DNA of 64,000 nucleotides from Escherichia coli (GCF_045037415.1 NZ_CP173438.1); one strand, 5' to 3'; counted from the stretch's first letter, positions 43,532-49,500 are shown. Numbers are program-made.

Positions 43532-46500
43532 TGGCATATGTTCAGTCTGTTCTGCACATCCGTTGGTTATCGAAGCGGCGCTGGCATTTGATCGCAACAG
43601 CACGCGTAAAGTGCTGATTGAAGCAACGTCAAACCAGGTCAATCAATTTGGCGGTTATACCGGAATGACACCGGCAGACTTTCGCGAATTTGTTTTTGCT
43701 ATTGCCGATAAAGTCGGATTTGCTCGTGAGCGTATTATTCTCGGCGGCGACCATCTGGGACCAAACTGCTGGCAGCAAGAAAATGCGGATGCGGCGATGG
43801 AAAAATCCGTCGAGCTGGTAAAGGCATATGTTCGTGCCGGCTTCAGTAAAATTCATCTTGATGCGTCAATGTCCTGCGCTGACGATTCCATACCGTTAGC
43901 GCCAGAAACGGTTGCTGAACGTGCCGCTGTGCTTTGTCTGGCGGCGGAAAGTGTGGCGACTGATTGCCAGCGTGAGCAACTGAACTATGTCATTGGCACT
44001 GAAGTTCCGGTCCCGGGCGGTGAGGCCAGCGCCATTCAGTCAGTACACATCACCCAGGTTGAAGATGCCGCCAATACTTTACGCACGCATCAAAAAGCGT
44101 TTATTGCCCGCGGTCTGGCAGAGGCGTTAACACGCGTGATTGCCATCGTGGTGCAGCCTGGTGTGGAATTTGACCATAGCAATATTATTCATTATCAGGC
44201 GCAAGAAGCTCAGGCGTTGGCGCAATGGATAGAAAAAACCAAAATGGTTTATGAAGCGCATTCCACCGATTACCAGACTCAGGCGGCCTATCGGGAATTA
44301 GTTCGCGATCATTTTGCAATTTTGAAAGTCGGTCCGGCATTAACCTTTGCGTTACGCGAGGCGATATTTGCGCTGGCGCAAATTGAGCAGGAACTTATCG
44401 CCCCCGAAAATAGCAGTGGTTGCCTGGCGGTAATTGAAGAAGTGATGCTCGACGAACCGCAGTACTGGAAGAAATATTATCGCACGGGTTTTAACGATTC
44501 ATTACTGGATATTCGTTACAGCCTGTCGGATCGTATTCGTTATTACTGGCCGCATAGCCGGATTAAAAATAGCGTCGAAACGATGATGGTGAATCTGGAA
44601 GGCGTAGACATCCCACTGGGCATGATTAGTCAGTATCTTCCGAAACAATTTGAACGCATTCAGTCCGGGGAATTATCAGCAATACCGCATCAGCTTATTA
44701 TGGATAAAATTTATGATGTTTTGCGCGCCTATCGCTACGGCTGTGCGGAATAAGGACGGTATATGACTAACCTGTTTGTTCGTGGCGGAATTTCTTTTGT
44801 CGATCGTAGCGAAGTTTTAACCCATATCGGTAATGAGATGCTCGCGAAAGGTGTGGTTCATGATACCTGGCCACAGGCATTAATTGCCAGAGAAGCAGAA
44901 TTCCCTACCGGGATAATGCTTGAGCAGCACGCCATTGCAATACCGCATTGTGAGGCGATTCATGCTAAGTCGTCAGCCATTTATCTGTTAAGGCCAACAA
45001 ATAAAGTTCTTTTTCAGCAAGCGGATGATGATAACGACGTGGCGGTATCGTTGGTTATTGCGTTGATTGTGGAAAATCCGCAGCAGCAATTGAAACTTTT
45101 ACGCTGTTTATTTGGCAAGTTACAACAGCCCGATATCGTCGAGACACTAATCACTCTTCCTGAACCCCAGTTAAAGGAATACTTCACAAAGTATGTTTTA
45201 GATTCAGACGAATAAATCCCTCTGTAACAATAAAAAGGACTATTTATGAAACGCAAAATTATTGTCGCTTGCGGAGGCGCGGTAGCGACCTCTACGATGG
45301 CGGCGGAAGAAATTAAAGAGTTGTGTCAGAGTCATAATATTCCTGTTGAATTAATCCAGTGTCGGGTTAATGAAATAGAAACCTATATGGATGGCGTGCA
45401 TTTGATATGTACTACCGCCAAAGTTGAACGCAGTTTTGGCGATATTCCGTTAGTTCACGGCATGCCTTTTGTTTCTGGTGTCGGTATCGAAGCATTACAA
45501 AATAAAATTCTGACTATCTTACAGGGGTGACCTATGTTTTCAGAAGTCATGCGTTATATTCTCGACCTCGGCCCTACGGTGATGCTGCCGATTGTCATCA
45601 TTATTTTTTCTAAAATATTAGGCATGAAGGCAGGCGATTGCTTTAAAGCGGGTCTGCATATCGGGATTGGCTTTGTTGGCATTGGCCTTGTGATTGGCTT
45701 AATGCTGGATTCCATTGGCCCGGCGGCGAAAGCGATGGCGGAAAATTTCGACCTGAATCTGCATGTGGTCGATGTCGGCTGGCCGGGCTCTTCACCCATG
45801 ACCTGGGCGTCGCAAATTGCGCTGGTGGCGATTCCGATTGCGATTCTGGTTAACGTGGCGATGTTACTGACCCGTATGACGCGGGTGGTAAATGTTGATA
45901 TCTGGAATATCTGGCATATGACCTTCACCGGCGCGTTGCTGCATCTGGCAACCGGTTCATGGATGATAGGGATGGCGGGTGTGGTAATTCACGCGGCGTT
46001 TGTTTATAAGCTCGGCGACTGGTTTGCCCGCGATACCCGTGATTTCTTTGAGCTGGAAGGCATTGCTATTCCGCACGGTACGTCGGCGTATATGGGGCCA
46101 ATTGCTGTGCTGGTCGATGCTATCATCGAGAAATCCCAGGCGTTAACCGAATTAAATTTAGCGCCGATGATATTCAGCGCAAATTTGGCCCTTTTGGCGA
46201 ACCGGTCACCGTGGGTTTTGTGATGGGGCTGATTATCGGCATCCTCGCGGGTTACGATGTCAAAGGTGTATTGCAGCTGGCGGTAAAAACGGCGGCAGTT
46301 ATGCTGCTGATGCCACGGGTGATTAAACCCATCATGGATGGTTTAACGCCCATCGCTAAGCAGGCCCGTAGTCGTTTACAGGCGAAGTTCGGCGGTCAGG
46401 AGTTCCTGATTGGCCTTGATCCGGCGTTGCTGCTGGGACATACGGCGGTGGTATCGGCAAGCCTGATTTTTATTCCACTCACCATTTTAATTGCTGTTTG

Positions 46501-49500
46501 TGTGCCGGGTAATCAGGTGCTGCCGTTTGGCGACCTTGCCACCATCGGCTTCTTTGTGGCGATGGCGGTCGCGGTGCATCGTGGAAATCTGTTCCGCACC
46601 TTAATCTCGGGTGTCATCATTATGAGCATCACCCTGTGGATCGCGACGCAAACTATTGGTTTGCACACCCAACTGGCGGCTAATGCGGGCGCGTTAAAAG
46701 CCGGGGGTATGGTGGCTTCAATGGATCAGGGCGGTTCTCCCATTACCTGGTTACTGATTCAGGTTTTCTCCCCGCAAAATATTCCCGGTTTCATTGTTAT
46801 CGGCGCAATTTATCTTACCGGTATTTTCATGACCTGGCGTAGAGCGCGTGGTTTTATTAAACAAGAGAAAGCCGTTCTCGCAGAATAATTTTTACCTGAG
46901 GGGGAGGTTATCCCCCTTAACAATCAGGAGTTTTTATGAAATCAGTGGTGAATGATACTGATGGTATCGTGCGCGTAGCAGAAAGCGTCATTCCTGAAAT
47001 TAAACATCAGGATGAGGTGCGGGTAAAAATTGCCAGCTCGGGCTTATGTGGTTCCGATTTACCCAGGATATTTAAAAATGGTGCACATTATTATCCAATA
47101 ACGTTAGGCCATGAATTTAGTGGCTATATTGATGCGGTGGGATCCGGTGTTGATGATTTACACCCCGGCGATGCGGTTGCCTGTGTGCCGTTATTACCCT
47201 GTTTTACTTGTCCAGAGTGTCTGAAAGGGTTTTATTCCCAGTGCGCAAAATATGATTTTATTGGCTCACGGCGTGATGGTGGATTTGCCGAATATATTGT
47301 CGTTAAGCGAAACAATGTCTTTGCACTACCTGCGGATATGCCTATTGAGGATGGCGCTTTTATTGAACCGATTACCGTTGGCCTGCATGCGTTCCATTTA
47401 GCGCAAGGATGTGAGAATAAAAACGTTATTATTATTGGTGCCGGAACCATTGGCCTGCTGGCAATTCAGTGCGCTGTCGCGCTGGGAGCAAAGAGTGTGA
47501 CGGCTATCGACATTAGCTCAGAAAAACTGGCACTGGCAAAATCTTTCGGTGCGATGCAAACATTTAACAGCCGTGAAATGAGCGCGCCGCAAATACAGGG
47601 CGTTTTACGCGAGCTGCGCTTTAATCAGCTTATCCTCGAGACGGCTGGCGTCCCGCAAACCGTCGAACTGGCGGTAGAGATTGCCGGTCCTCATGCCCAA
47701 CTGGCGCTGGTGGGCACGTTGCATCAGGATCTGCATTTAACATCTGCAACGTTTGGCAAAATATTGCGTAAAGAGCTGACGGTTATCGGCAGTTGGATGA
47801 ACTACTCCAGCCCTTGGCCGGGGCAGGAGTGGGAAACGGCGAGCCGGTTGCTGACAGAACGTAAGTTAAGCCTGGAGCCATTAATCGCTCACCGTGGAAG
47901 CTTTGAAAGCTTTGCCCAGGCGGTGCGTGACATCGCTCGTAATGCTATGCCGGGCAAAGTGTTGCTCATTCCCTGAAACCGCGGGCCAGCGTGATGCTGG
48001 CCCGGTATTGTGCAAAACAGATCATTCACCAATGGTTCCCCTTCGTTTACACTAGCCACAATTGAATATGGGTAAATGACGATGAATTCATTCGAGCGAA
48101 GGAATAAGATCATCCAATTAGTGAATGAACAGGGAACCGTGCTTGTTCAGGATCTGGCGGGAGTATTTGCTGCCTCGGAAGCGACAATCCGTGCCGATTT
48201 GCGCTTTCTCGAACAAAAAGGCGTGGTTACGCGCTTTCATGGCGGTGCGGCGAAAATAATGTCAGGTAATAGCGAAACCGAGACCCAGGAAGTCGGGTTT
48301 AAAGAGCGATTTCAGCTCGCCAGCGCGCCGAAAAACAGAATAGCGCAGGCGGCAGTCAAAATGATCCACGAAGGGATGACCGTTATTCTCGACAGCGGAA
48401 GTACCACAATGCTTATCGCCGAAGGATTAATGACCGCCAAAAATATCACGGTGATTACCAACAGTCTCCCGGCGGCGTTTGCCCTTTCCGAAAATAAAGA
48501 CATTACTCTGGTCGTCTGCGGTGGCACGGTCCGCCATAAAACGCGCTCGATGCATGGATCTATTGCTGAACGTTCCCTGCAGGATATTAATGCCGATTTA
48601 ATGTTTGTCGGTGCTGATGGTATTGATGCGGTTAATGGTATTACGACCTTTAATGAAGGTTATTCCGTTAGCGGTGCGATGGTGACAGCGGCGAATAAAG
48701 TGATTGCCGTTCTTGATTCATCGAAATTTAATCGTCGCGGTTTTAATCAGGTACTGCCAATCGAAAAAATTGACATTATTATTACCGATGATGCTGTGTC
48801 TGAGGTGGATAAACTGGCATTGCAGAAGACACGGGTAAAATTAATTACGGTGTAGTATTGTTCTGTATGCCGGATAAGGTGTTTACACCGTATCCGGCAT
48901 TACGGATTCTCTCTGGTTCAACAGAGAATAGTTTGATTAACGCAACAATGGACAATCTGGTGGTAATCGACAACGCAACGCCGCCGGAAGTATTTCAATA
49001 TGGAAGTTTTGCCCACTCAACGGTTCGCCATCAAGATTAAAAGTGATTTCGTGTGGGGCTTGTATATCAAACCACGACGAAGCACCTTCGATAATATTCG
49101 GGTTATCTTCGTCAGATTTTAAGGTTGATACGAGAGTCGGAATAATTTCATCGCCGGTAAAAATGCGCAGTTGCAGCAAGCCATCGTTAATTAATGCGTT
49201 CGGGCACAATTGTTGACCGCCACCGGCCTGACGCCCGTTACCAATACCAATGACCAGGGCGTCACCTTGCCAGTGAAAGTTTTCACCGCGGATTTCACAA
49301 CGGTCCGGTTGCAGAGTGTCCATGCGCATTAAGCCATGAATGATGTAAGAGACGCCACCCAGCGCGGCTTTTAATTTTTCCGGCGTTTCTGTGGTAATAC
49401 GCGTCCCAAACCCGCCTGTCGCCATATTAATAAAACAGGTTTGTTTGTTGACCTGCGCCATATCTATCGCAATGGCGTTACCGGCAATTGCCAGTTTCAG

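Follow-up and report, generated by a model that had tools for sequence, protein, structure and literature searches.

The galactitol (gat) locus of Escherichia coli was analysed in a 64,000-nucleotide (nt) stretch of the genome NZ_CP173438.1 (GCF_045037415.1), referred to below as the window. The whole locus lies on the + strand with fbaB and yegS on its flanks, and the gene order gatY-gatZ-gatA-gatB-gatC-gatD-gatR matches that of annotated genomes, which places gatC at the operon position of a genuine GatC gene. Six genes are intact: gatY (42608-43462, coordinates carried over from the annotation of strain JJ1887, 100% identical here) and, as read from the open reading frames (ORFs) and the JJ1887 annotation, gatZ (43491-44753), gatA for the phosphotransferase system (PTS) component EIIA (44763-45215), gatB for EIIB (45246-45530), gatD for galactitol-1-phosphate 5-dehydrogenase (46936-47976), which lies 3' of the premature stop described below, and an uninterrupted gatR for the DeoR-family repressor (48082-48855). 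The remaining gene, gatC (45534-46888), which encodes the galactitol PTS component EIIC, is a pseudogene of 1355 nt. It is 100% identical to the gatC of JJ1887, CD306 and LS4, which the NCBI Prokaryotic Genome Annotation Pipeline (RefSeq) marks in all three strains as a "frameshifted" pseudogene.

The lesion was mapped by aligning the window gatC with intact 1356-nt alleles, those of strain A37 and of a K-12 MG1655 record. The only alignment gap is a single missing base, with no compensating indel, in the A run that follows GAG at codons 200/201 (K200/I201), where four A have become three (AAAA in the intact alleles, AAA at 46131-46133 on the + strand of the window). The loss turns GAGAAAATCC into GAGAAATCC; across the site the intact alleles have GAGAAAATCCC and the window GAGAAATCCC, so that the codons ATC GAG AAA ATC CCA are read as ATC GAG AAA TCC CAG. 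The missing A is no chance pattern: set against those intact E. coli alleles that were aligned or sampled, it represents a derived deletion of 1 bp. An earlier note on this DNA had described gatC at 45534-46888 as 1355 nt long and split into two overlapping ORFs, which is confirmed here, but it had placed the shift at 46181..46193, with the AAA at 46181-46183 as the likely site, about 50 nt downstream of the position obtained here. Repair at this second AAA was rejected, as CGC AAA TTT encodes R-K-F there just as it does in the intact alleles, and the peptide restored in that way (...MIFSAKFGPFG...) would keep 16 out-of-frame residues. The correct peptide after repair of the frame is ...AIIEK-IPGVNRIKFSADDIQRKFGPFGEPVTVGF... 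(also given as ...AIIEK IPGVNRIKFSADDIQRKFGPFGEPVTVGFVMGL...).

Because the GatC frame is split in two, gatC is a pseudogene of its family rather than a functional member; in place of an uninterrupted frame of about 451 codons there are two ORFs of 229 and 225 codons. The first, ORF1 (45534-46223, + strand), encodes GatC residues 1-200 followed by 29 out-of-frame residues (SQALTELNLAPMIFSANLALLANRSPWVL) and a TGA stop. The second, ORF2 (46211-46888, + strand), carries a C-terminal portion of GatC, read in the -1 frame, and may start at GTG 46211 (V227) or ATG 46223 (M231). As read directly from the sequence, the ORF1 stop (TGA, 46221-46223) overlaps the in-frame ATG of Met231 in a TGATG motif (46221-46225, + strand). 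TGATG is a classic arrangement in translational coupling, and here it is an accidental product of the frameshift.

The same lesion is widely distributed. A 66-mer centred on it has exact matches in 369 of the 5,426 complete E. coli genomes, including EC958, JJ1886, JJ1887, JJ2434, MNCRE44, uk_P46212 and CD306, and the entire 1355-nt gene is 100% identical in many genomes (JJ1887, JJ2434, CD306, uk_P46212, 81009 and an O25b:H4 strain among them). The 229-residue ORF1 product and the 221-residue product of ORF2 read from its ATG are each present on at least 1000 public contigs, and database entries list them as distinct proteins, both under the name "galactitol permease IIC". When the A is put back into the window gatC, the full 1356 nt match at least 60 genomes at 100% identity, SE15, SaT040, ZH063 and Ecol_448/743/745 among them, so that SE15, SaT040 and ZH063 carry the very allele of the 369 lesion carriers with the A in place. 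A gatC haplotype of the sequence type 131 (ST131) type was traced with a second 66-mer (46008-46073) to 555 genomes, about two thirds of which have the lesion.

Such a distribution bears directly on the possibility that the missing A is a homopolymer error of sequencing or assembly and that the window gatC is in reality intact. The lesion does lie inside a short homopolymer, and long-read assemblies do carry single-base indels; SaT040 itself shows two isolated 1-bp indels in comparison with other strains. However, the allele recurs in hundreds of independently assembled complete genomes and its ORF products on all those contigs, it segregates by lineage with sister ST131 strains consistently AAAA, and a tract of three or four A is too short for a typical error hotspot. 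With so many independent assemblies in agreement, an error is unrealistic, and we give this explanation practically no chance.

Among the named carriers, EC958, JJ1886, JJ1887, JJ2434, MNCRE44 and CD306 belong to the H30 subclone of ST131, and at least one further carrier, LS4, has an H22-type FimH. In SE15, which we take to be the usual reference of ST131 clade A, gatC is intact. According to published fimH types (Johnson et al. 2016, Table 1, PMC4933990), SaT040 is H22, ZH063 is H35, CD306 is H30S, and JJ2434, JJ1887 and uk_P46212 are H30Rx; gatC is intact in the H22 and H35 strains and frameshifted in the H30S and all three H30Rx strains. The 11.36 kb from yegT to yegQ are the same in the window, JJ1887 and CD306; SaT040 differs there by the deleted base only, and SE15 by the deleted base and two single-nucleotide polymorphisms. 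Since one base is all that separates the window from SaT040 over this distance, the deletion is, on the evidence of these alignments, a recent event inside ST131, without further decay of the operon.

The fimH allele offered a further view of the association with H30. The fimH gene was extracted from JJ1887 and its His166 confirmed, and a 66-mer over fimH R166H matched 442 genomes, compared with the 369 that have the gatC lesion. R166H was rejected as a marker for counting H30 genomes, as it is also present beyond ST131, in Nissle 1917, ATCC 25922 and THO-006, the last of which has different alleles and extra neighbouring genes at its gat locus. The marker was therefore used only in a row-by-row comparison of two lists of 60 genomes, apparently returned in the same order. 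Of the 60 fimH-R166H genomes listed, 43 were in the frameshift list, and none of the other 17 was in the list of the intact ST131-type allele; thus, among the matches listed, no H30 genome with a repaired gatC was present. A phase-variable switch at the A tract was rejected as well, since the tract is only A3 or A4 with no long repeat, and a mixture of on and off states was not seen: in the same 60-genome lists, no genome that combined the ST131-type gatC haplotype with fimH R166H had the intact allele.

The defect is of a known kind and is already annotated as a pseudogene. No published report tying a gatC frameshift to ST131 or H30 was found in the literature open to search, where most matches to "gatC" concerned a company name or GATC methylation. 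In the ST131 core genome, gatC has been described as having "two alleles" (Cummins et al. 2022, PMC9836092). As gene callers deposit both ORFs of the pseudogene as separate GatC proteins, these two alleles are probably the two ORFs of one broken gene.

A phenotype with a matching distribution has been described. Alqasim et al. 2020 found dulcitol-positive reactions in 2 of 20 ST131 isolates and 15 of 20 non-ST131 isolates (P<0.0001; PMC7783844); within ST131, none of seven H30Rx and none of ten H30 non-Rx isolates were positive, as against two of three non-H30 isolates (PMC7783844). In an earlier study (Alqasim et al. 2014, PMC3917908), 36% of ST131 isolates and 60-100% of isolates of other sequence types were dulcitol-positive, and the accompanying genome comparison accounted for two of the five discriminatory tests, dulcitol not being one of them. 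The idn/ydd and asc deletions reported there resemble the gatC lesion as lineage-associated losses in carbohydrate utilisation that explain negative tests; they differ in being gene deletions visible to a presence/absence comparison, whereas the gatC defect is a single-base frameshift, which went undetected in that study. On the match between the two distributions, the gatC frameshift is the most likely cause of the dulcitol-negativity of ST131 H30.

The predicted effect of the lesion on the protein was considered in the light of a solved homologue. Restoring the A gives a full EIIC-GAT protein of 451 residues that matches Pfam PF03611 (EIIC-GAT) over residues 8-386 (E=6.1e-88) and aligns over residues 1-445 to the GatC of Leminorella grimontii (9u82, E=2e-244), its closest solved structure. 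LgGatC is 81% identical to E. coli GatC; its 11 transmembrane helices form two inverted repeats, composed of V motif and core, and its substrate cavity is lined by W83, S87, N125, W127, H128, G182, T183 and S184 from the first half and by D296, P297, F340 and D399 from the second half (bioRxiv 10.1101/2025.04.02.646771). All of these residues are conserved in the repaired window GatC (with the last one listed as D398) and are divided between the two ORFs. The break sits about halfway along the protein and separates the cavity residues of the N-half from those of the C-half. It coincides with the start of a hydrophilic stretch (approximately residues 203-221), which, by analogy with the N-terminal repeat, we interpret as the second amphipathic helix, where the two repeats meet. 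The window gene thus encodes the same cavity residues as the LgGatC of 9u82, 9u84, 9u8e and 9u8h, but LgGatC is intact and binds substrate, whereas the window polypeptide ends after Repeat I.

The loss of one A from the A4 run takes translation out of frame after residue 200 and leads to a stop 29 codons later. If GatC is an elevator-type EIIC with a cavity built from both inverted repeats, as its homologue suggests, neither fragment would form the cavity alone. Fragments lacking a binding site would not be expected to support galactitol uptake and phosphorylation by the Gat PTS, and loss of galactitol uptake is hence a reasonable prediction for the window gatC. With no galactitol-1-phosphate formed and GatR intact, the rest of the operon should remain repressed, and the other gat genes, although intact, would stay idle. 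In addition, the expression of gatD may be reduced by polarity from the upstream gatC stop or the long untranslated stretch that follows it.

Two routes by which function might survive the frameshift were weighed against this prediction. In the first, GatC would work in two pieces: ORF1 would supply Repeat I, and ribosomes terminating at the TGA would reinitiate at the Met231 ATG to produce Repeat II. The stop/start overlap at 46221-46225 could permit such termination-reinitiation, the break falls in the hydrophilic stretch taken as the repeat junction, the most tolerant place to split the protein, and dulcitol respiration of some ST131 isolates in Biolog assays was little different from that of isolates outside ST131. 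However, residues 201-230 would be absent and replaced by a junk tail of 29 residues on ORF1, and the lost segment, by analogy with the N-terminal repeat, should hold amphipathic helix 2 and the start of the next transmembrane helix. Direct reading shows neither start to be preceded by a good Shine-Dalgarno sequence. In all intact E. coli alleles inspected, gatC is one ORF of 1356 nt, and 17 of 17 H30 isolates were dulcitol-negative. A working two-piece GatC is accordingly very improbable.

In the second route, full-length GatC would be made by recoding, either through a programmed -1 ribosomal frameshift or through transcriptional slippage at the A run, in a fraction of the products. Relative to ORF1 the downstream frame is indeed -1, and the A run with the lesion adjoins a Lys codon. 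Against this, direct reading around ATC GAG AAA TCC reveals no in-frame slippery heptamer of the X XXY YYZ type, the shift is not conserved and the orthologues are read in a single frame, unlike a true recoding site, and the H30 isolates are dulcitol-negative. Efficient transcriptional slippage needs a run of about 7-9 A, and A3 is far below this length. Recoding is therefore extremely improbable.

Taken together, we consider it highly probable that the window gatC is a genuine, inherited loss-of-function pseudogene which derives from ST131 and is the most likely cause of the H30 dulcitol-negative phenotype. Several points weigh against this reading. The judgement on sequencing error was made from assemblies, as the reads behind the window are not inspectable. 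The overlap of the ORF1 stop with an in-frame ATG means that some C-terminal GatC fragment might be made, and residual function, or galactitol uptake by another route, is possible. The link between allele and phenotype rests on distribution, the phenotyped isolates having no gatC genotype, and in Biolog assays five ST131 isolates respired dulcitol to much the same extent as five isolates outside ST131 (PMC3917908). The clade assignment rests on a few named strains and on the comparison of two 60-genome lists, not on a phylogeny. Finally, the lesion is not strictly confined to H30: among the matches listed, LS4, EcPF7 and SCU-313 have the frameshift without the fimH R166H 66-mer, and either a recurrent origin of the deletion or recombination at fim is possible.

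Of these three strains, LS4 (NZ_CP024717.1; yak, Tibet) was followed further. Over 35.4 kb around gat it shows no difference from the window, lesion included. Its FimH (WP_001531278.1) is the same as that of the H22 strain SaT040 and its gene is 18 nucleotides off fimH30, while fimB is intact, without an ISL3-family insertion (extracted LS4 stretch 21592-22494 and 29741-30343). LS4 is a non-H30, ST131-like strain with the lesion, and EcPF7 and SCU-313 may be similar. The 35.4 kb around gat were also tried as a means of placing LS4 with respect to clades B and C and had to be set aside, as they hold no informative site and all the SaT040 differences are private.

The timing inferred from these comparisons puts the deletion inside ST131, later than the divergence from the sampled intact strains SE15, SaT040 and ZH063. 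The simplest reading is that it probably arose in late clade B, before the acquisition of fimH30, because LS4 combines the lesion with an H22-type FimH. The deletion also predates fluoroquinolone resistance, because the fluoroquinolone-susceptible H30S sublineage has it.

Some further differences between these strains were noted in passing. In JJ1887, fimB is split by the ISL3-family element ISEc53, which carries a gene of the ClbS/DfsB family (extracted stretch 40908-43400, outside the window), and FimD, FimF and FimH of SaT040 and LS4 differ from those of JJ1887. At window positions 62785-63888 (mdtA/mdtB), SE15 has about 30 clustered differences from the window, LS4 and SaT040, compared with only 4 in the preceding 34 kb; this 1.1-kb stretch looks like a recombination tract in one lineage. 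The yegP gene of SE15 is annotated with an internal stop.

A broken gatC is also known from the laboratory strain K-12. In the MG1655 reference NC_000913.3, gatR is interrupted (gatR::IS3E) and gatC (b2092) is a pseudogene of 1358 nt (extracted stretch 3922-5279) caused by two extra bases (+GG) inserted at nt 914, codon 305. K-12 stocks differ at this gene, as gatC is intact in a second MG1655 record, NZ_CP012868.1. Both strains share a small frameshifting indel in the same gene of the same operon, annotated as a pseudogene in each case. However, the K-12 lesion is an insertion at codon 305 that varies between stocks and is accompanied by constitutive expression of the operon owing to the IS3E in gatR, while the window lesion is a deletion of one A at codons 200/201, fixed in a natural clade with gatR intact. 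Because the two indels lie at different sites, gatC has been broken independently at least twice. The earlier note had likewise called the defect independent of K-12, which proved right, although the K-12 gatC pseudogene went unmentioned there, and its observation of an uninterrupted gatR stands: the GatR protein (WP_001367074.1) is also encoded in SE15, A37 and THO-006 and is identical to that of strains with intact operons. The frameshift and the intact gatR of that note are thus retained, whereas its mapped site has been corrected and its description of the lesion as strain-specific has to be given up, given an allele shared by 369 complete genomes that tracks ST131 H30/clade C.

Experimental evolution of K-12 raises the question of whether the loss of gatC was positively selected, as a gut-colonisation advantage for the ancestor of clade C comparable to that of gat-negative mutants in mice. 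Loss-of-function mutations in gat, 1-bp gatC indels included, repeatedly sweep during mouse-gut colonisation by K-12 and abolish galactitol use, and galactitol inhibits the growth of gat-expressing K-12 (Barroso-Batista et al. 2014, PMC3945185; PMC10878103); the allele, moreover, is apparently fixed in a globally successful clade. These mutants are experimental and arose in a gatR-defective, constitutive background in which galactitol is toxic, so what holds for them may not apply to wild strains that are gatR-positive. The K-12 effect is in fact ascribed to constitutive gat expression from gatR::IS3E, whereas the window gatR is intact, and in K-12 with gatR restored, inactivation of gatR was selected in the gut instead (PMC10878103). 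Galactitol can also be in short supply as a carbon source and then worth a contest, a point for which Eberl et al. 2021 have been cited. Clonal expansion would fix an allele by hitch-hiking equally well, the operon shows no further decay, and the sampled intact ST131 strains show no parallel hits. Positive selection is thus unlikely, and we lean towards hitch-hiking with the expansion of clade C as the default explanation for the spread of the deletion. A stronger version, in which the deletion was a clade-founding adaptive change that shifted the gut niche or relieved a galactitol-linked cost and so aided the success of the clade C lineage, appears quite improbable; if true, the dulcitol-negative or A3 state would be a simple marker of that lineage, older than fimH30 and fluoroquinolone resistance.

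Elsewhere in the window, a chromosomal resistance region of 12,604 bp bounded by IS26 (5970-18573) lies inside a DUF4132 ("MolR"-family) gene, with the 7-bp direct repeat GTATTTC on both sides (5963-5969 and 18574-18580). It is absent from JJ1887, which is otherwise 100% identical to window positions 1-5969 and 18574-64000. A yehK pseudogene, located just upstream in the JJ1887 annotation, falls outside the window given this 12.6-kb insertion. The region encodes a CTX-M-family beta-lactamase (7335-8210; CTX-M-15 in matching records), AAC(3)-II (13844-14752, minus strand), AAC(6')-Ib (15521-16213), an OXA-1-family beta-lactamase (16299-17174) and a truncated catB (17312-17860), along with five IS26 copies, Tn3 transposase fragments and an IS3-family transposase. 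Its left junction is matched by the genomes p11A, S3, R4 and E20, and because they match across this junction, the insertion seems to occupy the same chromosomal site in them.

The present analysis contributes the exact gatC lesion, its spread over ST131 sublineages and its probable link to a published phenotype that had no explanation. The frameshift provides a concrete candidate cause for the dulcitol reaction that gene presence/absence left unexplained in the study of Alqasim et al. 2014. The dulcitol-negative or A3 state could serve as a cheap lineage marker, older than fluoroquinolone resistance and probably older than fimH30. In the gut, galactitol is a carbon source subject to competition, and the dominant multidrug-resistant E. 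coli clone is probably unable to use it, which bears on strategies that aim at excluding this clone from its niche.

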